Origin: Flectonema sp. DT1601
Taxonomy: Eukaryota
NCBI GenBank assembly: GCA_964019425.1
Contig: OZ025802.1
Location: 930,001-994,000 of the forward strand
Reading direction: 5' to 3'
Length of the DNA: 64,000 bases
Within the stretch, counting starts at the first letter, position 1. Every line of letters starts with the position of its first letter. Both the position numbers and the translations under genes were made by a program. Positions 1 to 64,000 of the stretch are shown one piece after another. The notes beneath the pieces are model-generated. The model saw only the letters and a program-made list of their open reading frames with translations, was not told where the DNA came from and ran no database searches.

Positions 1-3000
1 TGGAATGCAACTGCTGGGGAGTGTTTCAAGGAACCGGTGCCAGATTGCCACTGCAAGTTCGACACCAACGACGATACCTACAACAAGCAAAAGTGTGATG
101 CCAACGCGGAGTGCTTCTGGAACGCCCCACTTTCGAAGTGTGAGGTTGACGAGTGCAGTGCGAACAATGCCGGAGCAGTCTGTGCTGCAGCTGGACAGAC
201 GTGCACTGATCCTAACAAGGAGCCGTGCAGCTTACATGATTGGACTTGCGAGTGCACACCTCCTGCTACTGGATCCAAAGTGGCTGATGTCGCTGAATGT
301 GTTCTCGATGAGTGTATCGTAATGGGATGTCCAACATGTGCTAATGGTACCTGCCCAACTGGACAGACTTGTAAGGATCCAAATCCATCAGCTTCTTCAA
401 CAAATGATTGGATGTGTGAATGTGATGATCCAGCAACTGGAAGTGCTATCATCGGAGTTGCTGATTGCAAGATCGATGAGTGCACCTACGACTGCGCATC
501 ATGTGAAAAGAACACATGTGCAACTAAAGGTCAGAGTTGCCTGGACCCCGACCAGTCGTCAACGTCGTTGAATGACTGGATGTGTGTTTGCGCGCCACCT
601 GCTACAGCTAACAAGACGGTGGGCCTCGCTGACTGTAGGTTCAACGAGTGCGACCTCGTCACTGTTTGTGATGCCAATGGACAGAAGTGTGTTGATCCAG
701 ATCTCGAGAAGAAAGACGACTGGAAGTGTGTTTGCAAGGACCCTGCCGTGGGAGCGTCGATCGGCAAGCCAGCGATCTGCGTTTTGAATGAGTGCAACAC
801 AACTTGTGCCACTTGTGCCAACGACACATGCACATCCCAGAACCAGGTTTGTGATGATCCAAACAAGTCTGAGACAAGCACCGGTGACTGGACTTGTACT
901 TGTGTCCCCCCGGCAACAGGCCAGGCTACCGGAAATAACGCTGATTGTCTGATTGATGAGTGTACCTACACGTGTCCAACATGTGCGAACACCACCTGCA
1001 GTGACGACAGTCAAGCCTGTCTTGATGCCGACAAGACTTCGACTTCGCTCGGGGACTGGGAGTGCATCTGTCCTCCACCGTCTAACGCAACTCAGCTAAC
1101 GGGGATTGCTAACTGCAGTATTGACGAATGCGACCTGCACCGTGATATTTGCACGAACCAGGGACAGCTTTGCCATGATCCCAACGGACTGAAGCAGGGT
1201 GACTGGATGTGCATATGCGTTCCTCCATCTAACGGCACCAACGTCGGTGATGTCGCTGCGTGTAAGATCGACGAGTGCGTCGCCACCTGCCCAACGTGCG
1301 CAAACGACACTTGCTCTGCCCAGAGTCAGGAGTGCAATGATCCGGATCCTAGCGCTGACGTTACCGGAGACTGGACATGCAAGTGTGTACCTCCAGCGGT
1401 TGGAAACGCCACCGCCAATGCTGCCCACTGTGTGATCGATGAGTGTACTTTCACTTGTGACACTTGTGCGAACACAACCTGTTCTGATGCTACTCAGGAA
1501 TGTTTCGATAAGGACACCACTTCGACGTCGAAGAATGATTGGGAGTGCGTCTGCCCTCCGCCATCGAACGCAACTGAGGTGACTGCTGTTGCGAACTGCA
1601 GCTTTGACGAGTGTGACCTTCACGGAGACACCTGCACTCGCCACGGACAGGTTTGCAATGACACTGGCCTGCTGACTCTGGATGACTGGGAATGTATTTG
1701 TGTTCCACCAGCAACGGGAAGCAACGTCGGAGACGTCGCAGCATGTCAAATCGATGAGTGTATCGCTGATTGCCCAACATGCGCTGGGACAAACTGCTCT
1801 GATGCACATCAGGTTTGCGTTGACGACAACATGAACGCCACCTCAACTGGAGACTGGCACTGCGACTGTGTTCCTCCACTCAACGGTACGGCGGTTGTCG
1901 ACGCTGCTTCCTGTACCATTGATGAATGTGTTTCAGTTTGTCCAACATGTGCTAATGATACTTGCAGTGGTGTTGGTCAAACTTGTTTTGATCCTGATAA
2001 ATCAGCAACCAACACCAGCAACTGGATTTGTACTTGCGTTCCTCCAGCATACGACTTCGCTGTTGCTCAAGCGGCACACTGTGTAGTGAATGAGTGCCAC
2101 GACCACGAGAAAACCTGTCACGCTGCTGGTCAGACTTGCGAGGACCCGGACACAACACCAAGTGCTTCGGGAGATTGGGTGTGCAAGTGCGTGCCACCAG
2201 CGACGAATGCAGGTACCACTCAACAGGGAGGAGTAGCGATGTGTGATTACCCGGGTGATTGCTCAGATACTATGGTTAGTGATGTTTGTACGAACGCTGG
2301 TCAGGTTTGCGACGACCCAACTGATATCATGACACCAGGTGACTGGACTTGTGAATGTGTGCCTCCGGCAATACTTGCGATGGGAAGCAATCCAGTTCAG
2401 GGAGCTCCGTCTGACTGCGTTCACGACGAGTGTGTGTTGGTTTGCCCAACTTGTGCTGACACCGGATCTGGTAACATCTGTTCTAAACACGGACAGGTTT
2501 GCAAGGACAGCAACACCAGTTCCCTCTCACTGAGCGACTGGGTGTGCGAATGCAACCCTCCGGAGAAGCCAGTTGACCCGAGCGCTGTTGCAGTTGCCAA
2601 GCCTGCTGAGTGTCAATTAAACGAATGCATCGAAACTTGCGCAACCTGTCAAAACGGAAAGTGCAACGGGCAGACTTGCGAAGATCCAAACATGGACCCA
2701 ACGATCACGAATGACTGGACTTGTACTTGCATCGCTCCGGGTGTTGGTGTTGCTACTGGCAAGGAAGCCGCTTGTGTTTGCGATGAGTGTCTGACGACAA
2801 CAGTTTGTGGTAACCAAACCTGTTTCGATACCAACACCTCGTGTCCTGCTGGCAATGACTTCACTTGCACTTGCCAGCCTCCATCGATTGACTTCGATGT
2901 TGCAGCGCCGGCTGTCTGCAAGTACGACGAGTGCAAGGAGAAGAGTGGTGAGTGTAACGCTGTGGGCCAAACTTGTAACGATCCGAATCTCACTGTTGCT

Positions 3001-27281: not shown

Positions 27282-27432
27282 GTATGTTTATGTTTGTTTT
27301 GCAGTCGTGGCTGCAATAGTATACGTGGTTTTCCCTCTCCTTTTTGTTCTTTTTTCTTTTTTTCCTTTTTTCTTTTTTTTCTCTCGTTTCTTCTTTTTTT
27401 TTTGTATGGTCTTAAACAATCCGCAAAAACAG
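27282..27432 (+). other. Spliceosomal intron 1 (151 nt, phase 2)
   Basis: GTATGT...CAAAAACAG. Splicing joins TG+G (Trp) and restores the Cys-repeat frame: INCEW-DVLYERCNKKKAC. Confidence 0.9.
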
Positions 27433-27586
27433 GGACGTGTTGTATGAGCGTTGCAACAAGAAGAAGGCTTGCGTGATGTACCCATCTGAAGTTGCGTGCA
27501 ACGCCACCAGCAGCAAGTGTATCTGGGAGAAGGAGAGCAACGTGTGCAAGGACATCGCACAGTGCTCGTTCTACGATTCCTCGTTG
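27433..27586 (+). CDS. Copy 1 coding exon 2 (Cys-rich CxW repeats)
   Basis: (W)DVLYERCNKKKACVMYPSEVACNATSSKCIWEKESNVCKDIAQCSFYDSSL, the same repeat type as upstream, bounded by AG and GTATGT. Confidence 0.9.
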
Positions 27587-27749
27587 GTATGTTTTTTTTT
27601 TTTTTTTTTTTTTAAATTTTTCTATCGAAATGTGACGCAGTTTTTAAGGTGGAAGCTTTTTTTTATTCTTTTTGTTCTTTTTTTTTTGGTCACGGCAGAA
27701 ATAAAAAAAAAGGGACCAACAAAACATAATAAAATAATAATACCATCAG
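27587..27749 (+). other. Spliceosomal intron 2 (163 nt, phase 0)
   Basis: GTATGT, poly-T, A-rich 3' half, CCATCAG. Splicing gives YDSSL-ECAKDAGCQWSD in frame. Confidence 0.9.
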
Positions 27750-28290
27750 GAGTGTGCCAAGGACGCTGGTTGTCAGTGGTCCGACGCCGAACCTGTGTGT
27801 CTGCCAAGAGACGATCCATGCAGTGGAAGACCAGAGAACCTGTGTACCGCTGAGGAGTGCATCTGGGAAGGTGATAAGTGTAAGTTGAAGTGCAGCGAAA
27901 CCTGCAGCGCGGCGGGAGGAGTCTGCAACGGCGAGTGCTGCACTTGCAAGCAGGGATACCACGGAGAGAGGTGTGACATGTGCCTGTTTGGAAAATCGGA
28001 GAGTGGCGGGTGCCTCACGTGCTCTGCTGAGTTCTGCAGCAACCACGGACGCTGTGACTCTGAAATGACTTCGTGCATCTGTGACAGTGGCTACGGAGGT
28101 GCTGACTGCAGTGCGAGAGTTTGCAGTGCTGAGATGCCAGTTTGGTACACTACCTTCCCGCTTCGTCCGATGAAGAACGAGCGTTTCACTTTCATCATCC
28201 ACGGTTGTTGGGACGATGCCGCGAACAGCACTGGTCGCGACGTTAAGATAGTTCCGGCATCGCAGACGTGTGACAGCCCTGCTTCATGTG
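27750..28290 (+). CDS. Copy 1 coding exon 3 (last Cys repeats plus EGF/laminin-EGF-like domains)
   Basis: Contains CTCKQGYHGERCDMC and CSNHGRCDSEMTSCICDSGYGGADC, both with the EGF CxCxxGYxGxxC signature. Confidence 0.9.
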
Positions 28291-29380: not shown

Positions 29381-29419
<39 letters not shown>

Positions 29420-30329: not shown

Positions 30330-30360
<31 letters not shown>

Positions 30361-31265: not shown

Positions 31266-31301
<36 letters not shown>

Positions 31302-54000: not shown

Positions 54001-57000
54001 GCAGTCGTTCGGACGTCACCCTCACGGATACTACGGACTGGTGTCAATCTTGAAGGACTGGGTGAAGAACCTTCCTCTGTCCGGGGAGCTCGCGAACATT
54101 GGTGCGGCGTCGACGCTGACTCAGAAGACGAGAGTTGGGTTCGTTCAGTTCTCGGGTCACCCGCAATACAGCGATCCTGCGACTGGTGTGTGGAGCGGTC
54201 CGATCGTGAACGACGTTGCGACGACGCCGATGGGAACTGGAGCCGGGGGAAGGATCTCGGGATCCATCACCGAGTTGAACGGAGACCTGGCGTGGCACCA
54301 GTCGAACTACCTGGATGCCGGTACCTACATCGCGAACGCGTTGATTACCGCGAATGACATGTTCTCGAAGCAGTCGCCGCAGGACAGCCGTACCAAGGTT
54401 TTGATCATCTTCACCGACGGAGTGATCTCTGACATCGACAAGACGTCGACTCCGAAGTCTTCACTGGAAGGGAAGGGAGTTATGATCTTCGGTATAATGA
54501 TCCGCAGAGGTGATATTCCATCAAGCGTTGACCTGACGGCTGAGGAGACGCTGAAGAAGATTGCTTCGGAACCGAACCGAGTGTACAACCTCCAAATTGA
54601 TGACATTCCGGACGTTCTGTCGAAGGTGTGCGACCCTACCGACAAATGGGGAGCTGAGATTGCGAAGGTTCCAAAGTCGCAGACGGGAGTGCACTTGCCT
54701 TGTCAGTTCTACGTTGAGAAGAAGCCTTGTGATGTGGACCCTGGATGTCTGTGGTCGGATGTGCTGTCTTCGTGTACCGACAGTGTGTGCATCGGGTACT
54801 GCAGCGAGCAGGATTGCGTTGCGGACACGGCGAACCATTGCAAGTGGGAAAACGACGAGTGTGTGAAGTTCAAGCCTTGCTCGTACACGCAGAAGGTGCA
54901 GTGCGAACAAGACACCGAGTGCCGATTCAACGACACGTCGAACGAGTGCGGTGAGAAGCCTTGCACGCACAGCGACGAGAACAGCTGCGTTGCGGAGACG
55001 ACGTACGAGTGCGAGTGGGTGCCGGGTACCCAGGAGTGCATTGAGAAGCCTTGCGTGCAGCTGACGGACTCGGGGAGCTGCGCGGCGGACGCGCAGTGCG
55101 AGTGGGACTCGGCGTGCGACAAGGATGTGTGCATCAAGAAGGTGTGCCAGCACGTGGCGATGGACCAGTGTGAACTGGACACGCTCTGCGCGTGGGTGGG
55201 GAGCGCGTGCCAGCGCAGGACTTGTGGAAACCTCGTCGACGAGAAGTGCTGCGTTGAGGACGAGCAATGCTTCTGGGACGTGTCTGCCGCACCGGGAGTT
55301 TGCAGAAAGGAGCCGTGTTTGGAGTACAACTCGACGAACTGCAACGACCAACGGGAGTGCCGTCTGGACACTTCCAACAACTGCAAGCCGAAGGACTGCG
55401 TGAACTACGACCAGTGCTCTTGCGAGGGTGACGCCGACTGCTTCTGGATCGCGGCGGCCCAGACTTGCACGTCGTCAGCTTACGGACAGTGCCCGACGAT
55501 GGACATCGTTTTGCTGATCGACGGTGGGGATTCGATGAAGAAGGCGTTCGGGCGTCACCCGTTTGGATTCTACGGGTTGACGAACGTGTTGAGGGACTGG
55601 ATGATGACTCTTCCGTTGAACGGGGAGTCGGGATCGGTCGGTAGCAACTCGAGGAGCGGGACGGACCAGGCGAGAGTGGCGATCGTGCAGTTCGCGGGAA
55701 GTGAAATCTGGGCGCCCGGGAACGAGCGTCAGTACCGAGTGTCGCCACCGGGAGTCGGAACTGGTGGGAGACTGTCGGGAATGAGGTCGGAGTTGGTTGC
55801 CGACTTGGCTGACCACGAAGCGAACTTCATGGGGGCGGACGCGGCCCTGCAGCCGATCCCGAGGAAGACGTACTTGCTTGGAGGTCTTGCGAAGGCGGCG
55901 TCCCTGTTCAAGAACTCGCCTGTCGACCGGACGAAGATCCTCATCATCTTCGCTGACAACGCGATGGACGACAAGAGCGCGTACGCAACGGCGCAGTCGG
56001 AATTGAACCGGCTGCAAGTGAACGTCTTCGGGGCGGTTGTGCGTCCGTACGACGTCCGCGGACCAATCGACACCGGTGCCGAAAGCGCGTTGACGACGGT
56101 GACGTCGAACGTGCAGTCGGAGCACACGGTCAACAAGCAATTGGACGAGTTGGCTGCGGTGCTCGAAGGTTTGTGCGATCCAAGCACCCCGTGGGGCAAA
56201 TACATCGCCAAGAAGGATGGTGGTGGTAGACAGCCGTGCCCGAACCACAAGGACAAGACTGTCTGCAACAAGGACTCCGGATGTGCTTGGCATGACCAGA
56301 CCCTGAGCTGTGGTGACACGCCGTGTTTGACCCACTGCGCGGAGGCAAACTGCACTGCGGACACCATCAACACGTGTGTCTGGAATTCAACAGTTGGTTG
56401 CGAGAAGGAGAAGACTTGCGACCACACCAACCCGGACGACTGCAGAGTCGACGACAAGTGTCAGTACGACGACGTCAGCAAGAGCTGCGTCGCCAAGAAG
56501 TGTGACCACGAGGCGGAGCAGGGTTGCCTTGCGGACCCTGACGTGTGTGTGTGGAACAACCTGAACAAGGTTTGCGGTGAGAAGCCTTGCAACATCCACG
56601 AGGAGCGTGAGTGCAACAATCACATCAACTGCACGTGGAACACGAGTTCGCGGACATGCAACGTCGACAAGTGTCTGTGGACCAGCGTCGACGAGTGCAA
56701 CACCGATCCGTACTGCGTGTGGGAAGGTGCAGGTGGTGCGGGAAGTGCTGACCCTTGCGTGCAGAAGAAGTGCACGGAGCACATGACGGAGTTGGAGTGC
56801 GAGTTGGAAGCAGACTGCGACTGGGACACTTCAATCTCACCGGGGATCTGTCTGGAGACGTACTGCAGACGCTACGGAAACGACAGCGGGTCGTGTGACT
56901 CCGATGGAAAGTGCATGTTCGAGAACTCGACGGATACTTGTGTGGACAAGGATTGTTCGACGTTTGAAGTTTGCAGGTGTCAGAAGGACCCGGAGTGCTT

Positions 57001-60000
57001 CTGGTCGGCGGATGCGTCCCCTGCGAGCTGCAAGGCTGCGCAGTTCGGAGAATGTCCACAACTGGACATCGTTGTGATGATTGACGGGTCGGACTCGATG
57101 AATTTGGTGTTCGGACGTCACCCGTCTGGTTACGTTGGAGTTATCGAGATGTTGCGTTCTTGGGTATCGGGACTTCCGCTTTCTGGTGAGAAGGCTGGAG
57201 TTCCGTCGACGAAGAACGGAAACACCAGGGTCGGGTTTGTTCAATTCGGAGGTCTCGCACAGTTCCCAACGCAGAGCGCGAGGAAGGCACCTGCGTCTGT
57301 GGGATCGGAGGGGCGGTTGAGCGGAGACAAGATGCAGGCTTTGGGGGACCTGTCGTGGCACGCGAGCAACATTGTCGGGGGGGAGACGTACATCGCGAGG
57401 GGTCTGGACATGGCGGCGGACATGTTCATGGCGTCGCCGAAGGATGGCAGGAAGAGGGTTCTGATCATCCTGAACGACGGAAAGATCTTGGACGCGGACT
57501 CCCTGACGACACCTCGAAGCAGACTGATCCAAAAGAACGTGTACACGATGGGGGTTGTGATCAGAAGGTTCGATGCGCAGTCACCTGTGGACATGGATGC
57601 CGAGGGAGCTCTGAAGAAGTTGACGTTCGACCCGGTTACGAAGCAACCTGCCGACGATATGATTACGAACGTGGTTTTGGATGATTTGATGGCGAAGTTG
57701 AACTCCCTGTGCGACCCGACTAAGTTGTGGGGACAGCGCATCGTCGACCGTGTTGGACAGCAGGTCGGTGTGCACCGTCCGTGTGGAAACTACCAGGACA
57801 AGGTGATGTGCGGGAAGGATGCGGGTTGTGTTTGGAGAGACGTGATCGATGCGTGCGTGGACACTCCGTGCACGCTGCACTGCCAGGAGGGTGAGTGCAA
57901 CACCGACGTGGCGAACAAGTGTGTGTTCGATTCCAGCAGCCAGGTTTGCTCGAAGACCGACACCTGCGCTGCGCACGACCAGGCGGCATGCAGCTTGGAC
58001 GCCGAGTGCAAGTTCAACACGACCTCGAACGGGTGTGAGGAGAAGCCTTGCAAGCACACCAACGAAGGGTCGTGCGTGGCGGACAAGACGTACGAGTGCG
58101 AGTGGGTGCCGAACACCCAGGAGTGCATTGAGAAGCCTTGCGTGCAGCTGACGGACTCGGGGAGCTGCGCGGCGGACGCGCAGTGCGAGTGGGACTCGGC
58201 GTGCGACAAGGATGTGTGCATCAAGAAGGTGTGCCAGCACGTGGCGATGGACCAGTGTGAACTGGACACGCTCTGCGCGTGGGTGGGGAGCGCGTGCCAG
58301 CGCAGGACTTGTGGAAACCTCGTCGACGAGAAGTGCTGCGTTGAGGACGAGCAATGCTTCTGGGACGTGTCTGCCGCACCGGGAGTTTGCAGAAAGGAGC
58401 CGTGTTTGGACTACAGTGCGGATACTTGCAACGACTACAAGAATTGCCTGTACGACAGCGGGTCCTCGAGTTGCCTGCCGAAGGACTGCAGCAAACACGA
58501 CCAGTGCGGTTGTGGAAGTGACGCCGACTGCTTCTGGGTGCAGGCAGTTCAATCGTGTATCCCACAGATCTACGGGCAGTGCCCGACGATGGACATCGTT
58601 TTGTTGATCGACGGTGGTGTGTCGATGAAGAGCACCTTCGGACGTCATCCGGTTGGGTTCTACGCGTTGACGAACGTTCTCAGGGATTGGATGATGACGC
58701 TCCCACTGAACGGGGAGTCGGCGAACGTTGGGGTGAACTCGGTTCCGGACACGGAGCAGGCGCGTTTGGCGATCGTGCAGTTTGCCGGTAGCACTGTGTT
58801 CGACAAGCCCGGGAACGACGGACAATTCCGAGTGTCATCAGTTGGTACTGGGGGAAGACTCTCTGGAATGAGATCCGAATTGATGGCCGATTTCAAGGAC
58901 CACGAGGACAACTTCATGGGGGCAAACGCAGCTCTGCAGCCAACTCCAACGAAGACCTACTTGTTGGGTGGTTTGAACAAGGCGGTCAGCATCTTCAAGA
59001 CTTCACCGGTTGTTCGGATGAAGGTCTTGATCGTGATCACCGATGACGAACTCGATGACAAGGACATGTACCAGACGGCGCGTGCTGAGTTGGCGCAGAT
59101 GAACGTGCAGATCTTCGGAGCGGTCGTGCGTGGATTCGATGCCAGCGGACCATCGGACCAAAATGCCGAGAGCACCCTCCGCAAGGTGACGACCGAGTCG
59201 CAGCTTGAGCACACGGTGAACGTTCAGATTGATGGTTTGGAGGCGGTGTTGAAGAGCATCTGCGACCCATCGCTGAACTGGGGTAAGGACATTACGAAGT
59301 ACAAGGTTGTGAAGGAGAGGCAACCTTGCCAGCTGTACCACGACAAGACCAAGTGTAACAAGGACGCTGGGTGCACCTGGTACGATGACACCCTGAGCTG
59401 TGGAGACTCGCTGTGCCTGACTCACTGCAAGTCGAGCAACTGCACTGCCGACCGGGGGAACCTGTGCGTCTGGAACGCGACGACTGGATGCGAGAAGGAG
59501 AAGGTGTGCGACTTCAGCGCAGCCGAATGCGCGAACCACCCGGAGTGCGGTTTTGACGGGAAGAACTGCGTTGCGAAGACGTGTGACCACGAAAACGAAC
59601 AGGGATGCCTGGCTGATCCAGACACCTGCGTGTGGAACAACTTGCAAAAGTCTTGCGGAGGGGTGCCTTGTGTGTACGACGCGGCTGACGAGTGCAACAA
59701 GGACGTGAACTGCACCTGGAATGCGACGGGACTGAAGTGCGAGGTGGACAGGTGTCGCTGGACGACGAAGGGTGAGTGCGAGTCTGACGTGTTCTGTGAG
59801 TGGAAGAACCGCCGAAACCAGCCGGAGGAGTGTGTGCAGAAGATCTGCGTTGAGCACGCGGACGAAAACTCGTGCAGGAGAGACGAGAACTGCGAGTGGG
59901 ACACTTCGATCGCCCCGGGGATCTGTACCGAGACGTACTGCAGGACGATCTGTGGGGACTCTTGTACCTCGACGGAAAGGATTGCCTGCAATGCCGATGA

Positions 60001-63000
60001 AAGGTGCATGTCGAGGGACAACAACGGAACGACGAACTGCGTGAACATGAACTGCGACGAGTTGGATGCGTGCGCTTGCCACGGCGACCTTGCGTGCTTC
60101 TACCTGGCGGACGAACAGGCGTGCGTCAACAAGAAGTACGGAGCGTGCCCGACGATGGACATCGTTTTGGTAATCGACGGGTCGGGTTCGATGAGCAACT
60201 CGTTCGGTAGACATCCTCACGGATTCGACGCGATGATCTCTGGGCTTTCTGAGTGGATCGCGACCCTGCCGCTGAGCGGGGAGTCTGCGAGCGTGGTGAA
60301 CCCGGCGCCGGACACTCGCAAGATGAGGGTCGGTGTGGTTCAGTTCAGCGGACGAGTTGAGGCGGGTTCGGTTGTCGATGCGGCGCTGAAGCCACCCGCG
60401 GGAGTCGGTTCGAGCGGGAGAATCACGGGAGCTCTGCAGGAGCTGAAGGATGATCTCGAGTGGCACAGCTCCAACTACGCTGCGAAGGGAACGTACGTCG
60501 CGGAAGCTCTTGGGGTGGCGGCGACGATGTTCAAGAACACGCCGGTTGGCGCGAAGAGAGCGGTGATCATCATCACCGATGGGAAGCTTCAAGACACGCC
60601 TGCTGAGATGACGCCGAGAAGGTCGGCTTTGGAGACCCTGGGGGCGCAGGTCTTCGGTATCGTCGTGAGGAGGTTCCCATCGCAGACCGACGTGGACAGG
60701 GATGCCGAGGCGGCGCTGAGGCCGATCACATCCGCTCCGCAGAGCGATCACTTCGTGAACCTGGACATGGATGACTTGGTTTCCCAGGACGGTCCGCTGA
60801 CGAAGTTGTGTGATCCAAATTCCGCATGGGGAAAGAACATCGCTTTGTCGACGGTCGGAGGAGGACTGCACCAGCCGTGTGCGTTGTACGCGAAGAAGCC
60901 AGGTTGCGTTGCGGATGCGGGATGTGCTTGGGGAGACCACACACTGACGTGCTCGGACACCCCGTGCATCCTTCACTGCAACAGCACCGCCTGCGACGAC
61001 GATGTCGAGAATGCGTGCAGGTGGGACGCGGCTACTTCGAGTTGCTACAAGAAGGACGTTTGCAACGAGCCGACCGAGCCGTTGTGCATCTTGAGCAAGG
61101 ATGACTGCGAGTGGGTTGACAACAGACAGCCTCCGTGCCAGACTCGTGTCTGCAGCCACACCGACGAGATCGGTTGCCTGGCTGACGTTGTGGGTTGCAA
61201 GTGGTCTGACATCACGAAGAAGTGTACGGTCGTTCCTTGCCAAGCAACCGTTCAGTCTGAATGCGTTGGAGGCTGTGAGTGGAACGCCACCGACGACACC
61301 TGCGTTGTGAAGAACTGCCTGTACACCCAGGAACAGGAGTGCAAGGACGACGTTCTCTGCGCGTGGTTCCCTGTCAACAACACCTGTGCTGAGCGTCCGT
61401 GTGCCAAGTACTTGTCTGAGAAGCAGTGTGACGAGCAGCTGCTGTGCAAGTGGGACGTCACGGCGCCACCGGGCAGTTGCCAGACTCCGTACTGCTCGAG
61501 GTTCAACAAGGAGAAGTGTGATGCCGAGCCGGGATGCATTTACAAGACGGGGCTCGTTGTTCCGGGATACCAATCGCCTGTCGACGTTTGTGTCGAGAAG
61601 AACTGCCGCGACATTCCGAACCCGTGTGCGTGCCAGGCGGATCCAGAATGCTACTGGGCGATCCACAACGGAGTTGGAGTGTGTGAGGAAGAGAAGTTCG
61701 GTCAGTGTCCAACACTTGACATCGTTTTGGTGTTGGATGGTTCTGGATCGATGTCGCAGTCGTTCGGACGTCATCCTCACGGATTCTACGCGATGATGGA
61801 GATGTTGAAGACTTGGGCCCAGTCGTTGCCGTTGAGCGGAGAAGACGCGACTGTCGGAATCAACTCTGCGTTGACTGGAGCTGTTCGTCTCGGAGTTATC
61901 CAATTCAGTGGAAACCCAACGATGCTGTCACCTCAGGGAGTAGTGGTCGGGTCGAGCCAGAGGGTTCCACCTGGAGTCGGAACTGGTGGTCGTCTGTCTG
62001 GAGACCTTACCCAGGTGTCGACCGACTTGTTGTGGCAGGAGAACCACTACTTGGCGGAGAGCACTTACATCGAGGAAGCGCTCGTCGCATCGCTCGACTT
62101 GTTCAGCGGATCTCCGCTCGACGGCAGGAAGAAGGTGTTGATAATCATCACTGATGGAGAGCTCAAGGACGCGGACAGGCTGACTGTTTCCCGTTCAAAG
62201 TTGAACCAGGCTGGAGTGATCGTGTTTGGAGCGGTCATCAGAAGGTCGGCTGCGGCCACTCCGACGGATGCTGCTGCCGAGGCGGCGCTTCTTCCGATTG
62301 TGAGCGAACCGAAGGACGGTCACTTTGCGAACTTGATCGTCGATGAGCTGCCGTTGGAGGTTCTGGACACGCTCTGCGACCGCAACGGAAGATGGGGTAA
62401 GTACGTCGTCGACAACGGAGCTGGAAGGCAGCCTTGCCAGTACTACGAATCGCAGTCACCGTGCAACAGAGACAAGGGATGCGTGTGGCACGACAGCACA
62501 TTGTCGTGTGGTAACACCCCTTGCTTCGAGCACTGTGACGAGCAGGTGTGCAATGCCGACACGGTTGAGAAGTGTCAGTGGGACAACACGCTCGGGCTGT
62601 GCTTCAGAATCCCTGTTTGCGACTTCGACATGGAGCAGCAATGTACTGCGGACCCTTACTGCGCTTGGGATGCGGTCAAGAACTGCACTGAGATCCCATG
62701 CAAGCACGAATCCGAGGACAGTTGTTTGAGTGATCCAAAGGGATGCATCTACGATACGATCAAGAGAACTTGCTTGCCTGACCCATGTAAGGACAAGCCT
62801 GAGCTGGCGTGCTCCCTTCTGTCGCCTCAGTGTGTGTGGGACACTGCTGCGCTGGTTTGCAAGAAGGAGGAGTGCAACAACTGCGGTGTCGACCACCAGT
62901 GCTGCAACGACTACGCGAAGATCTGCGAATGGAACTCGACTGTCTCGAGCTGCCAGCAGAAGAAGTGCGTGGAGCACGTTACGGAGTTGGAATGCGCCGA

Positions 63001-64000
63001 CGACAACGCGTGTGAATGGGAAGGAGCGATCTCACCGGGCCACTGTACCCGTACTTACTGTGACAGGTACTCGAACACCACTGAGTGTGGACTTGACGAC
63101 AAGTGCAAGTGGGATTTCGGATCGTGCATCAAGGCTGGATGCACCAAGCACACCGAGTCCGGATCGCATTGTGATTGCAATGCGGATGCCGAGTGCTTCT
63201 GGCACGACAGCACCTGCGTGGACATCAACTACGGAGCTTGTCCAACGATGGACATCGTGATCCTCCTTGATGGTTCGACTTCGATGGGAGAGGACTTTGG
63301 CACCCACCCTCACGGATTCTATGCCGTGTTGGAAATGGTGAACGACTGGATCATTAACCAGCTTCCGTTGGCCAATTCACTGGGTCGCTACGGAAAGGCA
63401 CCAAGGTATGCTGAGGGCCTCGCCCGTGTTGGGTTCGTGCAGTTCTCGGGAGACTCGGCGCTTCTCGAACCGAACAAGCCGTTCACGCAGTCGGCAATCT
63501 TGTCGATCACCGACACCAGAGGAGGACTGACGGGATACACACCGGAGATCACTCGGGACTTGGACTGGCACCAGAAGAACTTTGCCGGCAAGGGTACGTA
63601 CATCGCGGAGTCCCTGAAGAAGGCGGCCACGATCTTGTCGACGAACCCGACCAAGAGCGGTAAGAAGTTGGTGATCATCATTTCAGACGGGAAGTTTGAG
63701 GACGATCCAATTTACATCACGAAGGGAGTCGATGCCCTGAAGGCGGTTGACGCTTACGTGTTGGGTGTCGTGGTGAGAAAGTTGATAATCCACACGAAGG
63801 TCGACCTCGATGCGGAGGCTTCGCTGAAGTCGATCTCCGACTACGTTGCGAACTTCCGTTTGGACGATGTGAAGGATGGACTGTTCAAGAAGCTGTGCAG
63901 CCCTGAGACTGTTTGGGGGAAGCACTTGGTCTCCGTTGACAGCAACTCTCACGTTCCGTGCGGATTCCACGCGATCTCTGACACTTGCAACAAGGACACC
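32981..64000 (+). CDS. Giant VWA/C-type lectin/EGF-like surface protein, copy 2 (5' end present, runs off the window)
   Basis: ATG after an A-rich context (CTAAAAAATG). In frame with 43,886, the equivalent of base 1. The ORF track lists no stop-terminated ORF in this frame, consistent with >31 kb of open frame. Segments translated by hand give lectin, VWA and Cys-repeat motifs. Confidence 0.93.
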   Translation, partial: MRSFGFVLAALLPVCLAGTYEQNVPKNVFNVDCQTIVFTTGECDCNTVIPGASIDVEEGYVNGRDTLSCPACAGLGIQTQWISGTGVLKLTGNGKTINDFAKAIDSINFLTTSGDGNSRRITYNYGHALYTSITGHFYEYYPTSECSTSACRWDDGQASCADKKLDVLGLVGYLATITSAGERDITNAKIQGHGWLGGSDVGRESTWKWVTGPEGCPPYDTSVTGAQRSACDFGYPLPDTKNPCSGPDCNGGTLMGTGASWWFRRSAFGNWAGGEPNEYSRHCGGTCFTTGEDFLHFYGNNGLWNDYPHRHNSIDGFMCEWGGVGELCMDSGDVFKSYVLVSGCDGFKSQDKCEAHIPVGSCAWDINTGSCIPHGCHVHEDEAQCGQDPLCDWDLTVSPAACVDNKCASSHTDVSSCNGDLVSPCRWDDNQPDGAQCQPLNCGDITDMCTCTKLGNLCLWDPSSKTCLDPDQSTCPAADVIFVVPGTKHAGTQFGTHTNGYYGLMEHLRHWTSSAHMAGASDSNYGFRAAYVTYGRNGKSITASDSTGAPATFDNCKTWDPVTGTTGNNGGFSMNPHALNMDISFLENFYCPNWAGSGSYAVPGLQTALSSVQAASANGRKKYVFIVAESELSDSSTDLANVVNQIKAVPDTEVFGIVPRALQGSTSTDVQAEAKLKPLVTSDKHIVNVELANLGDEVLSKLCDASTTFGSVISTKSDVGCRQRDETDCKGAHLCLWDISNSPSCVNSPCLQKCTEVECNSQAGCQWDAALGVCEKDIVDCSLHNGDKAACENNENCVFEPVWAAADTCATNPCRDLTDSTSCVAETETVSAPCVDPPGNPDYCKLSVCEYDDSKSPKCNVKKCLQKDQTKCEAEDGCLWEPLQTPPPTGPPSTLVTYCAEKKCDYPSQPACVADPKGQCQWDDGSQTCKELPCVHNPDELTCDNDPVCHWDISTNPPGCIETPCGKNKNQGDCEASGDCMWNNDNPAKPYCETLNCGELKTACECQESPHCTWHQAGQYSHCVDPLYSTCPDLDIGFIIDGSGSMSLRFGNHPHGFFALMNMLQDWVKTLPLTGEDHTVGAQSTVRGGGFRVSFIQFSKANASPAEDHPTNCAIGACTDGKLSGMRSELLGDIQWHETNYQSQWTYIHDALLDVAENTFDPLHSPAHREHIVIILADGGLTDYDGDACSWGICGICPWGCDSSYKPSYKAILDDGYAKLVADNVTVFGVVIRRFASSNFQDRNAENKLKPLVSSPRDDHFLSLQMDEIPDKLLKSLCDPNSKFGAIVAPAVNVDHFPCASWGYRDECMSDETCEWVTPKLTTCDATTGCPQLNCQELPIHYRGIYECNKCRLARTVITCGANVASSIVGTCRQTACMACCNSTCCDAKPECSWNTTDSTCTRDVCEHPNKDDCENDANNLCKWDPVTKDCSKKECEATFEQHKCAANPECLWDAGVDPPVCLPIPKCDTYTAEAQCVTDVQCTWNCTDSDCRYTLCPFANEVDCLSSTDCEWSGTICVEKPCRYNTSSECAAGCDPNCKWDNKTSTEHCRQDHCKKHAGNPACDKDPRCHWSGTTCDEDYCADYDNDEVECKDDPRCTWSKDASLGCVLTNCSKDHGIPSTASCAPDVNCKPGTDATGDYCEPTQCHDLDSCECPQKAGCYWDPNGGATNSGECKEDAGSLCPDLDVVFLLDGSGSMSARFGSHPHGYQGMIEVLKDWVNTIPLTHEPAHTTSTVTGGTFRLAFIQFAKTSEYWACKNDGSGCNRNTWGCRNPDVSQLPGAKCADGTFSGDLTELQNDLTWHERNYMGSVTYMSKALEDAVQVFDDSPANRKHVVVIITDGSLNPRSRQSREIPPLRAQLDAKDVITFGVVVRKGQSHTKADLDAEATLKPITSDPHDDHFVNVPLDDMLDHVFKDFCDPASPFGKAVSTGGTRAAVLPCSKWGLESECHADASCEWTSALPATCVKPSGCKNLNCLELSGTQAQAYTCEQCVLVGSVVTCSAGTKNTGTGQCLQSDCSTACIVSTCANKNGCVWNGGLCQEEQCDYANRTACENDAICKWNTTKSPEECEKKQCTHFAAGPCNGDKNCTWDDATQKCYPNNPECDKIKNDALCLAEPSGKCTWNCITDGCEVKKCVYTSSVDCTRIASCQWDNAGQVCQEKHCVWTKENECNADAVCNWENNNCVVNDCYQHGTELLCVQDDKCEWDTANCGICNEKYCQKYNNKAACDSDIKNECRFDDATQSCVDKNCVDYNNGALYSAGASCPCKSDATCQFDTTTTPPLCKATEFENCPNLDIAITFDGSCSTNNAFGQHPSGFEGMLAAVHDWIVTAPLTGEAAGKTSTDTNGRMRLAINQYSSQVHVADCPNCACDNLDFPINGVNTTKCGKLSGDLGELKQDLGWHASAAGKATQTCESRLKPVEEFATEVFKQSPSTRMKILIVVTDGVMTDKDELATTTAALVAQGVKIFAVNVMKGASATNTDDVALASLESKIVTTPAAQNAQGSDLDSLSELFDTFCDPSGKWGATVTAGTTGTTQVKKCSDLTTVLLCDAKLTCDWDGTSLLCGDHACFTHCNETTCLSDPQNTCNWNATSQSCEKIPCDEVTKQDECEKHTECTWDVTKSPQCTEDPCPARTEDACIQLNGCQWATDPAPAKCEPIPCNFGNDSVACNAEPGCEFDDVCPDAVDQLCRLKPCAQDKHLTLAGCQADRLCVWNSSNQCEQAACVQYPDEKCCDHYSNCHWDVSQSPAVCSEKYCPRTHDNQVECDKDTKCMWNSTDGTCIEKNCVELEECRCRADAECFWDHQHHTPHCSDSKFGECPVLDVVFLIDASGSMGWRFGRHPNGFYALMEIFRDWMMTVSLTGEKGGENKLGTVDGIRIGFIQFSGSNPRWWRRGSAWAKKTPANTGTGGRLSGDRNELHADIDWHENKFYRWGTMIEKGLTMAGDVFDAAHATNGRKRILIIISDGRIFDPSKLANARKVLNQENVQTFGVVIRRQAAHTKADRDAESTLKPITSDVHDEHYMNIQMDEVRTDMLDLLCDPNGPWGHLIVDQTKTQAGVHRPCTHYQGNAQTCAADPGCIFSPTTNLCVDSPCSHHCGEVQCTADNVNLCVWNSTTGDCWKDTECAHTTKNTCEGDRVGCNWDDTRDPKCEKTPCTYDSETNCLLDQTCEWTTDPVTAAVGCTPIKCLYNDSSTCGNDPECEWRTNICTGTVDCEEKKCTFTSQTVCLKDPACEWENSKCQTQPCAHYLEESCCDKVDECKWDVTTTPAVCDEAKCPKYPDPTQCNADTECFWTANATGVEKCLPLDCSKLTDRCGCDSNPKCYFKPTPTGGMCTVVEFGECPTLDIAIIIDGSGSMGWRFGKHPHGFYALIEVLRDWVVTLPLNGESGSVGINSKRNNGGVRVGFIQFSGKYRRSEAKTSTPSVGTGGRLSGINKELQDDLDWHHNNFYNKGTYIKKGLELAVDMFHDSRMDDDRQRVLIIFGDGQIFDRTQLAAARSDLDKEEVQVFGIVLRRQSQHTRSDLNAERTLKPITSDPHDEHFENVLIDEVSSLIKDICNPNGPWGHLIVNHIPTPTTGHHLPCPDYKVQANCVGDPGCVWSDAGIACVNSPCLLHCDSTNCTLAAASHNCSWNATAGECFKEPVPDCHCKFDTNDDTYNKQKCDANAECFWNAPLSKCEVDECSANNAGAVCAAAGQTCTDPNKEPCSLHDWTCECTPPATGSKVADVAECVLDECIVMGCPTCANGTCPTGQTCKDPNPSASSTNDWMCECDDPATGSAIIGVADCKIDECTYDCASCEKNTCATKGQSCLDPDQSSTSLNDWMCVCAPPATANKTVGLADCRFNECDLVTVCDANGQKCVDPDLEKKDDWKCVCKDPAVGASIGKPAICVLNECNTTCATCANDTCTSQNQVCDDPNKSETSTGDWTCTCVPPATGQATGNNADCLIDECTYTCPTCANTTCSDDSQACLDADKTSTSLGDWECICPPPSNATQLTGIANCSIDECDLHRDICTNQGQLCHDPNGLKQGDWMCICVPPSNGTNVGDVAACKIDECVATCPTCANDTCSAQSQECNDPDPSADVTGDWTCKCVPPAVGNATANAAHCVIDECTFTCDTCANTTCSDATQECFDKDTTSTSKNDWECVCPPPSNATEVTAVANCSFDECDLHGDTCTRHGQVCNDTGLLTLDDWECICVPPATGSNVGDVAACQIDECIADCPTCAGTNCSDAHQVCVDDNMNATSTGDWHCDCVPPLNGTAVVDAASCTIDECVSVCPTCANDTCSGVGQTCFDPDKSATNTSNWICTCVPPAYDFAVAQAAHCVVNECHDHEKTCHAAGQTCEDPDTTPSASGDWVCKCVPPATNAGTTQQGGVAMCDYPGDCSDTMVSDVCTNAGQVCDDPTDIMTPGDWTCECVPPAILAMGSNPVQGAPSDCVHDECVLVCPTCADTGSGNICSKHGQVCKDSNTSSLSLSDWVCECNPPEKPVDPSAVAVAKPAECQLNECIETCATCQNGKCNGQTCEDPNMDPTITNDWTCTCIAPGVGVATGKEAACVCDECLTTTVCGNQTCFDTNTSCPAGNDFTCTCQPPSIDFDVAAPAVCKYDECKEKSGECNAVGQTCNDPNLTVAGDWECECIPPQLPDGRNSTNDKHAVCKLDECVQTCPTCANNTACGSQTCKDPNTDPTMVGDWTCTCVEGVGFATGKQAECVCNECLNTMICENANQTCYDADKSCPPKNDFDCECQPPSADTAVAAAAICTYDECIDHKASCTQVGQVCKDPDTAVGGNWICECVAPQVQQGNTVQGRPVTCAIPECDVVGCPTCANDTCSGAGQTCFDPNTDPSSLRDWTCTCELPGVGFATGKPADCVCNECLNSTTCSDADQTCHDADKSCPPRNDFKCECKFPSSDSAVGQAVAVCTNPECEKNKAVCASVGQTCVDNNITRDNDWECVCPLPSLGIGLMQPAACTLVECDQTCSTCANDTCSSVGQTCSEVSTDPTDVNDWECVCKPPATGRASGAAAHCERDECKEHGDKCTLNCKTGSLDCAQKCVDPDKSVTSLNDWKCICEPPSSNYAVGKSAKCSVDPCVADNEEACLNDNAGCEWTELPTRTCKKIPCEFDNPASCNSTADCDWVSTAGSRGGLGSISYDNVNAVSPFASVTCDGISFTGSCSCNMLLGAAGEKGGAQVTIEDGYSKGSDSLECTGCAGAGIESVWNANTGTLILKKSAGAGATARELVEAIKTVAFRTSSSDGNLRGLTWNLGNAMYSKRTSHYYRHFTAAECNGAGGGCTWEEAQNMCSSKSLFGLTGYLMSVTSGAENSLAKGKLEGSGWIGAMGSGNSWKWVTGPDATKGPSPCRSFTGGASSCDFAGVDSGKGYPIGSGVADQFVAAQVLGLAAYNQWDTSEPTQSGRFASFAVPSGEWSTPGSSSDGFICEWGEIGNACLATADDLWGTVDLVAGVCKEKRCTESSQAECEVDPFCNFVGGNVDPCVPKPCTEYPDEKSCDKDERCDWDTSVAPGLCSETVCEKLKTAELCEKHPDCDWDTLTGHCKEQICPVNTDRCSCNEEPKCFWSDSADAAARQCVDSKYALCPVMDMIIMFSGTKNMAQVFGRHPVGFDAVTSILRDWVSTMYLTGERYTVNPSVANGGGVRVGLVQFAGELAPSTTVVTKAVRTSPTGVGESGQLSGDMNELLEGITYHESNYLMGQGAYIVPALEKASSMFTSTPIGRKRVLIVLTGSTIKDIDQVQPSQNKLETQGVEIFGAVIRRMDTKTAEDIRAEAAMKPLATDPAVDHSDGIKVDDLEAILHGICDPNSKWNVATSPAVPQAGVHKPCAQYGSQKDCTADKGCVYSGVFQKCEASPCIAHCGEVQCNADNVNLCEWDAANQTCWKRELCPHHNSTACEDDPACDWNSSASTVEDKCVERECNYKSEQECAAEVLVKCDWDSASRTCGLTPCQHANETSCTADASEHCEWDVCVASHNSADACRKDRCLDYGAEYSNCTQDPMCRWDALAGNGKCLRKTCTEFGDERCCNDQDGCFWDISVSPALCSEKLCESLKQDQGACGTEPTCEWDSAKNTCVDKDCSVMERCDCEKDVDCFWRSANGTESCTWKSYGECPAMDMVLLLGGSSTMGLPFGRHPKGFNGMTEALKKWVATIPLSGEAASVGLGSKPTGIRVGVVQFGGENKDGGNPGRADAKTAPVGVGAAGQFSGDVAELKADLDWQEDNFYGSGMMIANGLGVAERMMRDYSPQDGRKKVVVILADGKMYDTDTVSGTIASMQVQGVEVFGAAIRRQPVSTLVDQNAVASLRTIATSPSSGHVANIVLDELVDTTKSLGGICDSNAFFGKLLVDAQPDTTVAVGGQHKPCDQHLEKSPCNIDPGCVWFDASLSCVETLCMQHSCNQSSCEQDVANGCVYETATHRCWKEPKDCSLYTNMTKCAEDAECQASSDKTTCVDKKCDHDDEKGCIADSDLCVWDNLQSICGERPCSATTEADCKLATGEQCVWNTLLPVNGTTESFAKGKPMQPFNSVGTTGYPEDCSAGMFAGGSCSCATTLSEAHVGVEEGYTPSKDVFECPKCASLGVNTEWNSATGIMTLRAAGSAAGGTADTFLKAIREVTFTTTSDDGNARKLTWNLGGAFYSSNTGHYYRYFAKSECGGVQGGCRWDEAKTACESDSRMIFGLRGYLLSINTETETKALMGRISGEGWIGATDAGANEGEWRWMTGPEALTGTTPCGAFGNNRASCDVSIDLASGKLVGADAAKGVSIGSGVGSRFTAVSYANWAIGQPDDSHTACPGSCAAWGEDFAQYSIPSGTWRDAPGDASDVAGFVCEWGGVGSLCVQSNAFGSKFVTAGVCEEKKCTTDIESECKRDPYCKWENNTCGIKKCAEYPDEVTCEQDEICDWNPAVSPAICEQNPCTRYLDNSTCEADSNCMVDPTGKAKSLCVDKDCNEYDKCKCKNDVECYWKNNSCVNSNYGECPTLDIVAIVDGSGSMSQSFGRHPHGYYGLVSILKDWVKNLPLSGELANIGAASTLTQKTRVGFVQFSGHPQYSDPATGVWSGPIVNDVATTPMGTGAGGRISGSITELNGDLAWHQSNYLDAGTYIANALITANDMFSKQSPQDSRTKVLIIFTDGVISDIDKTSTPKSSLEGKGVMIFGIMIRRGDIPSSVDLTAEETLKKIASEPNRVYNLQIDDIPDVLSKVCDPTDKWGAEIAKVPKSQTGVHLPCQFYVEKKPCDVDPGCLWSDVLSSCTDSVCIGYCSEQDCVADTANHCKWENDECVKFKPCSYTQKVQCEQDTECRFNDTSNECGEKPCTHSDENSCVAETTYECEWVPGTQECIEKPCVQLTDSGSCAADAQCEWDSACDKDVCIKKVCQHVAMDQCELDTLCAWVGSACQRRTCGNLVDEKCCVEDEQCFWDVSAAPGVCRKEPCLEYNSTNCNDQRECRLDTSNNCKPKDCVNYDQCSCEGDADCFWIAAAQTCTSSAYGQCPTMDIVLLIDGGDSMKKAFGRHPFGFYGLTNVLRDWMMTLPLNGESGSVGSNSRSGTDQARVAIVQFAGSEIWAPGNERQYRVSPPGVGTGGRLSGMRSELVADLADHEANFMGADAALQPIPRKTYLLGGLAKAASLFKNSPVDRTKILIIFADNAMDDKSAYATAQSELNRLQVNVFGAVVRPYDVRGPIDTGAESALTTVTSNVQSEHTVNKQLDELAAVLEGLCDPSTPWGKYIAKKDGGGRQPCPNHKDKTVCNKDSGCAWHDQTLSCGDTPCLTHCAEANCTADTINTCVWNSTVGCEKEKTCDHTNPDDCRVDDKCQYDDVSKSCVAKKCDHEAEQGCLADPDVCVWNNLNKVCGEKPCNIHEERECNNHINCTWNTSSRTCNVDKCLWTSVDECNTDPYCVWEGAGGAGSADPCVQKKCTEHMTELECELEADCDWDTSISPGICLETYCRRYGNDSGSCDSDGKCMFENSTDTCVDKDCSTFEVCRCQKDPECFWSADASPASCKAAQFGECPQLDIVVMIDGSDSMNLVFGRHPSGYVGVIEMLRSWVSGLPLSGEKAGVPSTKNGNTRVGFVQFGGLAQFPTQSARKAPASVGSEGRLSGDKMQALGDLSWHASNIVGGETYIARGLDMAADMFMASPKDGRKRVLIILNDGKILDADSLTTPRSRLIQKNVYTMGVVIRRFDAQSPVDMDAEGALKKLTFDPVTKQPADDMITNVVLDDLMAKLNSLCDPTKLWGQRIVDRVGQQVGVHRPCGNYQDKVMCGKDAGCVWRDVIDACVDTPCTLHCQEGECNTDVANKCVFDSSSQVCSKTDTCAAHDQAACSLDAECKFNTTSNGCEEKPCKHTNEGSCVADKTYECEWVPNTQECIEKPCVQLTDSGSCAADAQCEWDSACDKDVCIKKVCQHVAMDQCELDTLCAWVGSACQRRTCGNLVDEKCCVEDEQCFWDVSAAPGVCRKEPCLDYSADTCNDYKNCLYDSGSSSCLPKDCSKHDQCGCGSDADCFWVQAVQSCIPQIYGQCPTMDIVLLIDGGVSMKSTFGRHPVGFYALTNVLRDWMMTLPLNGESANVGVNSVPDTEQARLAIVQFAGSTVFDKPGNDGQFRVSSVGTGGRLSGMRSELMADFKDHEDNFMGANAALQPTPTKTYLLGGLNKAVSIFKTSPVVRMKVLIVITDDELDDKDMYQTARAELAQMNVQIFGAVVRGFDASGPSDQNAESTLRKVTTESQLEHTVNVQIDGLEAVLKSICDPSLNWGKDITKYKVVKERQPCQLYHDKTKCNKDAGCTWYDDTLSCGDSLCLTHCKSSNCTADRGNLCVWNATTGCEKEKVCDFSAAECANHPECGFDGKNCVAKTCDHENEQGCLADPDTCVWNNLQKSCGGVPCVYDAADECNKDVNCTWNATGLKCEVDRCRWTTKGECESDVFCEWKNRRNQPEECVQKICVEHADENSCRRDENCEWDTSIAPGICTETYCRTICGDSCTSTERIACNADERCMSRDNNGTTNCVNMNCDELDACACHGDLACFYLADEQACVNKKYGACPTMDIVLVIDGSGSMSNSFGRHPHGFDAMISGLSEWIATLPLSGESASVVNPAPDTRKMRVGVVQFSGRVEAGSVVDAALKPPAGVGSSGRITGALQELKDDLEWHSSNYAAKGTYVAEALGVAATMFKNTPVGAKRAVIIITDGKLQDTPAEMTPRRSALETLGAQVFGIVVRRFPSQTDVDRDAEAALRPITSAPQSDHFVNLDMDDLVSQDGPLTKLCDPNSAWGKNIALSTVGGGLHQPCALYAKKPGCVADAGCAWGDHTLTCSDTPCILHCNSTACDDDVENACRWDAATSSCYKKDVCNEPTEPLCILSKDDCEWVDNRQPPCQTRVCSHTDEIGCLADVVGCKWSDITKKCTVVPCQATVQSECVGGCEWNATDDTCVVKNCLYTQEQECKDDVLCAWFPVNNTCAERPCAKYLSEKQCDEQLLCKWDVTAPPGSCQTPYCSRFNKEKCDAEPGCIYKTGLVVPGYQSPVDVCVEKNCRDIPNPCACQADPECYWAIHNGVGVCEEEKFGQCPTLDIVLVLDGSGSMSQSFGRHPHGFYAMMEMLKTWAQSLPLSGEDATVGINSALTGAVRLGVIQFSGNPTMLSPQGVVVGSSQRVPPGVGTGGRLSGDLTQVSTDLLWQENHYLAESTYIEEALVASLDLFSGSPLDGRKKVLIIITDGELKDADRLTVSRSKLNQAGVIVFGAVIRRSAAATPTDAAAEAALLPIVSEPKDGHFANLIVDELPLEVLDTLCDRNGRWGKYVVDNGAGRQPCQYYESQSPCNRDKGCVWHDSTLSCGNTPCFEHCDEQVCNADTVEKCQWDNTLGLCFRIPVCDFDMEQQCTADPYCAWDAVKNCTEIPCKHESEDSCLSDPKGCIYDTIKRTCLPDPCKDKPELACSLLSPQCVWDTAALVCKKEECNNCGVDHQCCNDYAKICEWNSTVSSCQQKKCVEHVTELECADDNACEWEGAISPGHCTRTYCDRYSNTTECGLDDKCKWDFGSCIKAGCTKHTESGSHCDCNADAECFWHDSTCVDINYGACPTMDIVILLDGSTSMGEDFGTHPHGFYAVLEMVNDWIINQLPLANSLGRYGKAPRYAEGLARVGFVQFSGDSALLEPNKPFTQSAILSITDTRGGLTGYTPEITRDLDWHQKNFAGKGTYIAESLKKAATILSTNPTKSGKKLVIIISDGKFEDDPIYITKGVDALKAVDAYVLGVVVRKLIIHTKVDLDAEASLKSISDYVANFRLDDVKDGLFKKLCSPETVWGKHLVSVDSNSHVPCGFHAISDTCNKDT
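33032..34010 (+). other. N-terminal lectin module 1 (beta-rich domain plus C-type lectin domain, EPN/WND)
   Basis: GHFYEY...WDDGQASC...GYLATITSAGE...GWLGGSD...WKWVTGPE...NWAGGEPNE...EDFLHF...LWNDYP...FMCEW. EPN at 33,803-33,811 and WND at 33,890-33,898. Confidence 0.85.
34400..43700 (+). repeat. Six N-terminal VWA + Cys-repeat units (seen only in copy 2)
   Basis: VWA starts near 34,402 (CPAADVIFVVPGTKH), 36,070 (DGSGS), 38,027 (DGSGS), 39,860 (DGSCS), 41,444 (DASGS) and 43,016 (DGSGS). Confidence 0.85.
43886..64000 (+). repeat. Tandem duplication, copy 2 of the overlap visible in the window
   Basis: TGGAATGCAACTGCTGGGG at 43,886 equals base 1; the window end AAGGACACC equals 20,107-20,115. 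Confidence 0.98.

Follow-up and report, generated by a model that had tools for sequence, protein, structure and literature searches.

A tandemly duplicated gene of Flectonema sp. DT1601 predicts an apparently undescribed giant receptor with VWA, C-type lectin and EGF-like domains

Diplonemids are abundant and diverse marine heterotrophs, and we know of no account of how they recognise food or surfaces. Here, we asked whether a 64,000-nt stretch of the Flectonema sp. DT1601 genome (contig OZ025802.1, positions 930,001 to 994,000; hereafter the window) encodes one giant membrane protein, as a preliminary description had proposed, and what such a protein might do.

Two partial gene copies occupy the window: the 3' part of copy 1 (1-28,972) and, beyond an AT-rich spacer of ~4.0 kb, the 5' part of copy 2 (32,981-64,000). 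The two copies lie in tandem at an offset of 43,885 nt and are 99.96% identical over 20,115 nt, with mismatches at 9 of the 20,115 shared positions. Copy 2 begins with an ATG at 32,981, and its frame stays open up to 64,000 (10,340 codons, 0 stops); in-frame stops were sought in 32,981-43,886 in particular, and none was found. The reading frame of copy 1 is open from base 1 of the window, its 5' part lying upstream, and 12,728 codons are open across the overlap of the two copies. The 13,139-aa protein model is a composite, with aa 1-10,340 taken from copy 2 and aa 3,636-13,139 from copy 1, neither copy being whole in the window. We reproduced the claimed sum of exons (38,186+154+541+539 = 39,420 nt), which equals 13,139 aa plus a stop without internal stops (1.42 MDa, 8.5% Cys). 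The features of the window are the following:

1..27281 (+), copy 1 long coding exon, model aa 3,636-12,729, ending in terminal minirepeats
145-4,365 (+), EGF-like block of copy 1, then lectin module 2 at 4,627-5,451 (+), then VWA7-8
8,749-9,654 (+), lectin module 3 of copy 1, then VWA9-19 up to 26,166
27282..27432 (+), intron 1, 151 nt, phase 2, GTATGT...ACAG, with homologues collinear across it
27433..27586 (+), exon 2, 154 nt, Cys-x-Trp minirepeats
27587..27749 (+), intron 2, 163 nt, phase 0, with homologues collinear across it
27750..28290 (+), exon 3, 541 nt, minirepeats, teneurin/EGF-type repeats (~27,888-28,124) and the first half of a conserved juxtamembrane domain
28291..28433 (+), intron 3, 143 nt, phase 1, at whose place P0158 ends and the P0009 match stops
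28434..28972 (+), exon 4, 539 nt, remaining juxtamembrane domain, TM helix (~28,793-28,858), 37-aa tail and stop
28973..32980 (no strand), inter-copy spacer, ~4.0 kb, AT-rich, with poly-T tracts and no ORF of at least 150 aa
32981..33034 (+), copy 2 start codon and predicted signal peptide, a hydrophobic 18-mer similar to the P0158 N-terminus
33077..33970 (+), lectin module 1, a C-type lectin domain nested in an Ig/cadherin-like frame, EPN and WND
34403..43666 (+), VWA1-6 with minirepeat spacers, the distal segment, in which the sibling copy P0001 differs
44030..48250 (+), 26 EGF-like repeats, pattern DEC...C-x-D...W-x-C-x-C
48512..49336 (+), lectin module 2, degenerate, EPT and WST
49775..52030 (+), VWA7-8, both without DxSxS
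52634..53539 (+), lectin module 3, QPD and WRD
53951..64000 (+), VWA9-15 with spacers; copy 2 leaves the window at aa 10,340

The three introns all read GTATGT...CAG and have 24-33% GC. The splice model is supported by homologous proteins: the alignment of P0157 of Rhynchopus euleeides spans each of the three junctions and reaches the tail (39% over 491 columns), and those of two further ORFs, P0010 and P0007, do so as well (34% and 36%, respectively). P0158 is a single 6,189-aa ORF that runs from a signal peptide through 10 VWA domains to a 'GML' end at the place where intron 3 starts in the model; its stop at this position suggests that it shares the intron. Reading through intron 1 gives a Phe-rich stretch that mimics the end of a TM segment, a candidate that was rejected since the homologues continue into exons 2-4. 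Read contigs from one run (depth ~2), placed on 27,700-29,370 only, span intron 3 without splicing it out (1 mismatch), the behaviour expected of DNA, and may stem from the source sample. The minus strand has long ORFs, too (up to 974 aa), which we interpreted as shadows cast by the high-GC3 coding frame. Ahead of copy 2, inspection by eye of 32,650-32,980 revealed a pyrimidine tract ending ACAACAG at ~32,678, as well as another GT/AG pair around 32,765-32,940, which may represent a trans-splice acceptor and a 5'-UTR intron of copy 2.

The differences between copies 1 and 2 are grouped. Five of the nine are synonymous (1,041-3,486), all inside the EGF-like block, and the other four, which change an amino acid, fall within 600 nt of one minirepeat spacer (18,746-19,346 vs 62,631-63,231). 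This clustering suggests patchy gene conversion.

Relatives back other parts of the model, too. The closest named ones are EukProt transcriptome proteins: P0002 of Flectonema neradi matches the N-terminus (54% over 700 aa), and proteins of R. euleeides match at 50% over 871 aa, which agrees with a diplonemid origin of the window. The R. euleeides isoforms P0157 and P0159 (6,530 and 6,951 aa) are collinear with model aa ~5,590-13,139, with matches in 26 of 27 tiles of 250 aa at 34-52% identity; the Rhynchopus proteins start after the EGF-like block, without a signal peptide, P0159 with lectin module 2 as its first element. The GC content of third codon positions rises from 0.43-0.53 (aa 1-5,000) to 0.68-0.76 (aa 5,001-11,000) and is lower again near the end. 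The jump lies directly after the EGF-like block, the same point where the Rhynchopus proteins begin, and the two halves of the model coding sequence may differ in history. The EGF-like block is absent from P0158 and outside the Rhynchopus coverage, but it is found beside VWA in P0003 and P0005; because it is present in some relatives and absent in P0158, the predicted family members vary in length and content.

Two shorter JGI proteins share parts with the model. P0005 (867 aa) carries 10 EGF-like repeats, one VWA domain, a TM helix and an acidic tail, suggesting a wider family of smaller diplonemid-type receptors. P0004 (3,405 aa) is built nearly throughout of Cys-x-Trp minirepeats like those of the model, with a partial Ig-lectin module after them, so that such parts exist outside the VWA family. 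Two JGI metagenome scans yielded relatives in 0 of 97 and 0 of 17 candidates.

From its N-terminus, the model comprises a predicted signal peptide, lectin module 1, VWA1-6, 26 EGF-like repeats (aa 3,684-5,090) and lectin module 2, then VWA7-8, lectin module 3, VWA9-19, minirepeats, teneurin/EGF-type repeats that stay below Pfam cut-offs, the juxtamembrane domain, the TM helix and the tail. The counts of 19 VWA domains, three lectin modules and 26 EGF-like repeats equal those proposed initially; the HMMs behind one domain count were built partly from these repeats, which makes it a tally and not independent proof. The named domains thus stand, but that list omitted the largest part of the protein, ~180-200 Cys-x-Trp minirepeats with four Cys each (180 C-x-[WFYL] motifs counted). 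Minirepeat spacers and linkers occupy 6,266 aa (48%), VWA domains 4,246 aa, the EGF-like block 1,407 aa and the lectin modules 875 aa. Regular spacers have 40-42 Cys per ~295 aa, and 99 N-glycosylation sequons occur in the model protein.

An AF2 model of the ~520-aa unit, made from a 16-unit alignment (pLDDT 81.4, pTM 0.63), predicts each minirepeat as a short helix plus a beta-hairpin, with a VWA fold after the minirepeats. For the minirepeats themselves, fold searches were dominated by the VWA domain and ESM Atlas gave no usable match. The 26 repeats of the EGF-like block show the six-Cys pattern with C-x-C; Pfam gave no EGF match there, and the top ESM Atlas clusters carry EGF_3 (0.93, with a low recognition score and the family on less than half of the members).

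The VWA profile PF00092 scored 37.9-107 bits (cut-off 23.8) in seven of ten scanned stretches, and VWA1/2, missed by Pfam in the first stretch, were recovered by motif and self-HMM. In the AF2 model of VWA14, the one domain folded out of 19, Foldseek matched CMG2 and integrin I domains at E ~1e-9. The fold compares well with an integrin I domain (Z 20.8, rmsd 2.4, 177 aligned; best VIA Z 21.7) and also matches collagen VI and TRAP domains. DxSxS with a later Asp is present in 11 of the 19 domains and absent in V1, 7, 8, 10, 12, 16, 17 and 19, so the proposed binding through a MIDAS would apply at most to these 11. MIDAS conservation by position is partial: V15 and V18 are intact in the model and degenerate in Rhynchopus, and V1 is degenerate in the model and intact in Flectonema.

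A quick tree of 46 VWA repeats pairs most of them by position across species, V1-V6 with Flectonema or P0158, and V7-V9, V13-V16, V18 and V19 with Rhynchopus, V17 being unpaired. Given that the repeats group by position across species, the predicted architecture is older than the split of these genera. V10/V12 represent a later internal duplication (quick tree; 72% DNA identity over 1,979 nt). A run of ~100 identical residues also recurs in the spacers that precede VWA10 and VWA12 (~55,000-55,300 and 58,090-58,390), within otherwise diverged units, which we read as a sign of recent conversion between internal repeats.

In each of the three lectin modules, a C-type lectin sits inside an Ig/cadherin-like frame. 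A profile from an alignment of 33 lectin modules matched 119 PDB sequences, solved C-type lectins (best E 2.6e-13), as well as C-type mannose receptor 2 (E 5e-10). Lectin_C (PF00059) matched at E<=0.1 in 30 of the 33 members, and among the three of the model only module 2 did so individually. EPN is the mannose-type and QPD the galactose-type sugar-binding motif, and WND is a Ca-site motif. Module 1 has EPN+WND and module 3 QPD+WRD; classical sugar-binding motifs thus appear intact or nearly so in two of the three modules. Module 2 is degenerate (EPT+WST). Rhynchopus lectin modules have neither EPN nor QPD.

The same module of ~270-300 aa was confirmed in 541 of 602 candidate stretches of a prokaryotic genome scan (best E 3e-34, ~30-40% identity), and the 77 loci kept belong mostly to Bacteroidota. 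The nested C-type lectin module is shared with Ig/cadherin-like surface proteins of prokaryotes (Bacteroidota type IX-secreted CHU_C; Chloroflexota, Cyanobacteria, Methanolobus), and of the ten host proteins scanned, most were surface proteins bearing Big_9, cadherin-like, PKD or CHU_C domains; apart from the diplonemid-type proteins, such prokaryotic surface proteins were the main place in which this analysis met the module. EPN occurs in 75 of 88 prokaryotic modules and QPD in 5 of 88. The diplonemid modules differ in having 9-16 Cys each, whereas prokaryotic ones average 0.4; apart from the module, the host proteins are unrelated. One clade (SH-aLRT 99) unites the eight diplonemid-type modules in a tree that is unrooted and without a eukaryotic outgroup, includes 44 of the 88 prokaryotic modules, has eukaryotic rows differing in composition, and names no donor; the P0004 module falls apart from the others on a long branch. 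Acquisition of the lectin module from prokaryotes is plausible on these comparisons. Two Methanolobus loci (L011 and L023) show archaeal surface proteins with the same Ig-nested C-type lectin module and EPN.

A single hydrophobic helix was detected at aa 13,081-13,099 (Kyte-Doolittle 3.03), the runner-up being the N-terminus (1.61). Together with the predicted signal peptide and homologues collinear to the tail, this agrees with the single-pass order of signal peptide, TM and tail put forward earlier, and a type I membrane topology is supported at the level of prediction. The 37-aa tail contains YQDF at 28,907 and an acidic EMED (D/E 7/37 = 19%). The motif Y-x-x-F-E-M-[ED]-D-G is present in all four direct homologues with a tail (the model, P0157, P0007 and P0010), despite an overall identity of only 34-39%; the shorter paralogue P0005 has YETD in place of YxxF. 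YxxPhi is a short motif, which serves other sorting routes too.

Which known systems does such a protein resemble? Megalin/LRP2, cubilin and the mannose-receptor family are multi-ligand endocytic receptors of animals; megalin has ~4,600 aa, and the LDL-receptor family is characterised by LDL-A repeats, YWTD propellers and an NPxY tail. Like these receptors, the model has an ectodomain of great size, in which binding modules recur along a Cys-rich scaffold, and like megalin and the mannose receptor it has a single TM helix and a Tyr-based tail signal. Unlike megalin, cubilin and the mannose receptor, it carries VWA heads, at around three times the length of megalin; the Pfam scan found no LDL-A, YWTD, CUB or fibronectin-II domains, and the tail has YQDF and no NPxY.

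TRAP, CTRP and MIC2 are likewise type I proteins with VWA (A) domains and a short acidic tail, as far as the available part of PMC2169348 describes them. The acidity of the model's tail is within the TRAP/CTRP range (18-30%), and its VWA fold aligns with that of P. falciparum TRAP (Z 19.5, rmsd 2.3, 179 aligned). Unlike these adhesins, the model has no terminal Trp, adds lectin and EGF-like blocks and is far longer; a TSP_1/TSR domain gave no match in the Pfam scan, which covered all of the protein model but exon 2. By the criteria of the LDL-receptor and TRAP/CTRP families, the protein lies outside both. C. elegans DIG-1 (13,084 aa) has nearly the same size and contains VWA and EGF-like domains, but it is an ECM protein with Ig/FN domains whose VWA/EGF part is at the C-terminus only, in the accessible part of PMC8544517, and there is no sign of homology beyond the shared domain types. 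No named protein with this architecture was found in the literature searched, as first stated, nor any description of this giant receptor family; the available part of the main text of PMC13615690 does not mention VWA, EGF or lectin.

Within the same lineage group, Paradiplonema papillatum (P. papillatum) TR68965 and Bodo saltans BSAL_88760-like proteins share a signal peptide, repeated VWA domains and a TM segment with the model (PMC12697944). TR68965, likened here by architecture only, was detected as a protein, with 7 and not 19 VWA domains annotated (PMC12697944). Proteomics classified this protein (signal peptide + 7xVWA + TM) as multivesicular body/membrane trafficking (SVM 0.78) and found it enriched in nutrient-poorer medium; it figures as a table row only and is not discussed in the part of the text available (PMC12697944). 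A second P. papillatum TM protein with the same Bodo best match was classified likewise (0.67), and the remaining two of four rows with that best match were classed 'unknown' (PMC12697944). According to the same source, uptake in P. papillatum takes place through the cytopharynx into endocytic vesicles (PMC12697944).

On balance, we somewhat favour the reading that the product of this tandem-duplicated gene is a multi-ligand endocytic capture receptor. The role envisaged at the outset, capture, adhesion or uptake, is consistent with the predicted protein, and it shifts towards capture plus uptake given a conserved YxxF-acidic tail that lacks the TRAP-type terminal Trp. In such a receptor, ~520-aa units of a VWA fold and ~ten disulfide-rich helix-hairpin minirepeats, as predicted, would space the binding heads along a long stalk. 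The 11 DxSxS VWA domains would bind acidic protein groups through Mg/Mn, and lectin modules 1 (EPN) and 3 (QPD) would bind mannose-type and galactose-type sugars, respectively, through Ca; prey surfaces, debris or polymers could be bound avidly through the sum of many weak contacts. Through AP adaptors recruited by the conserved tail, cargo would be taken in at the cytopharynx or flagellar pocket and passed on to endosomes and lysosomes. The ligand range might be widened by duplicate copies with different distal binding loops. Counted against this reading are the 8 of 19 VWA domains without DxSxS, the partial conservation of MIDAS status by position, the Rhynchopus lectin modules without EPN/QPD, the two 'unknown' P. 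papillatum rows, the shortness of the YxxPhi motif and the gliding of both genera with transcripts.

The same heads might instead belong to a gliding or attachment adhesin, in which VWA and lectin domains grip a substrate or host and the tail connects to a cortical motor, as in TRAP/CTRP. Tandem VWA domains, a single TM helix and a short acidic tail (19% D/E) follow the TRAP/CTRP plan (PMC2169348), trophic cells of Rhynchopus and Flectonema glide (PMC8061765), and prokaryotic relatives of the lectin module occur in Ig/cadherin-like and type IX-secreted surface proteins. However, the tail is devoid of the Trp that, in the part of PMC2169348 available, TRAP-family tails need at their penultimate or antepenultimate position; the Pfam scan found no TSR domain, and YxxF is the best-conserved feature of the tail. 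Moreover, the P. papillatum protein matched by architecture maps to an internal trafficking cluster and not to the cell membrane (PMC12697944). We regard an adhesin as the main rival reading, albeit an unlikely one.

Variation among copies bears on a further alternative. P0001 aligns gap-free with copy 2 aa 1-3,494 (98.6% identical) and breaks off there; it is probably the missing start of copy 1 or a third copy, whose frameshift may exist in the genome or stem from the assembly. It differs at 49 residues, the final, shifted one included, and 37 of these fall in lectin or VWA domains, i.e., 37 of 1,611 residues in binding domains vs 12 of 1,883 elsewhere (p=3.4e-5), and eight changes remove Trp, Tyr or Phe. 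Within the VWA domains, 14 of 324 residues are changed in MIDAS-face loops (AF2 topology) vs 18 of 988 elsewhere (p=0.02), or 11 of 276 vs 4 of 788 (p=1.5e-4) when VWA2 is excluded, which was decided once the dense block of changes in its inserted segment had been noticed. This clustering in binding domains, the tandem copies and the 8.5% Cys would suit a long disulfide-rich glycoprotein acting as a protective coat or in self/non-self contact, with variable distal loops as identity tags. Yet the repeat order is kept across genera, unlike in fast-turnover coat families, and a sorting-type tail is conserved, which makes a coat or cell-cell recognition role improbable.

Very improbable, finally, is the lack of any full-length product through broken copies, an assembly-artefact duplication or internal trans-splicing that splits the transcript: neither copy is whole in the window, the two are 99.96% identical, P0001 stops abruptly with the sibling copy appearing frameshifted in the assembly, and no single relative's transcript covers the whole length, the Rhynchopus proteins beginning after the EGF block, but 12,728 codons are open across the overlap, P0158 joins a signal peptide to the intron-3 position in one ORF, P0003 and P0005 join VWA to the same EGF-like repeats, and five of nine copy differences are synonymous.

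Returning to the capture-and-uptake receptor, the locus predicts a conserved, apparently undescribed giant protein that would rank among the longest membrane-anchored proteins. Genes of this kind are broken up by standard gene calling, and the public record contains pieces only (P0001, P0006). With it, a protist would reach a megalin-like design with different parts, for which the use of a prokaryote-type lectin module is suggested. The family offers a conserved candidate for how diplonemids recognise food or surfaces, testable in the tractable P. papillatum. A bolder extension, which we hold only tentatively and consider rather doubtful, is a diplonemid-wide megadalton receptor with VWA heads and a bacterial lectin module, kept in tandem arrays with a homogenised stalk and diversifying distal loops; if true, such arrays would give one of the most abundant protist groups in the ocean a tunable repertoire for recognising prey or hosts.
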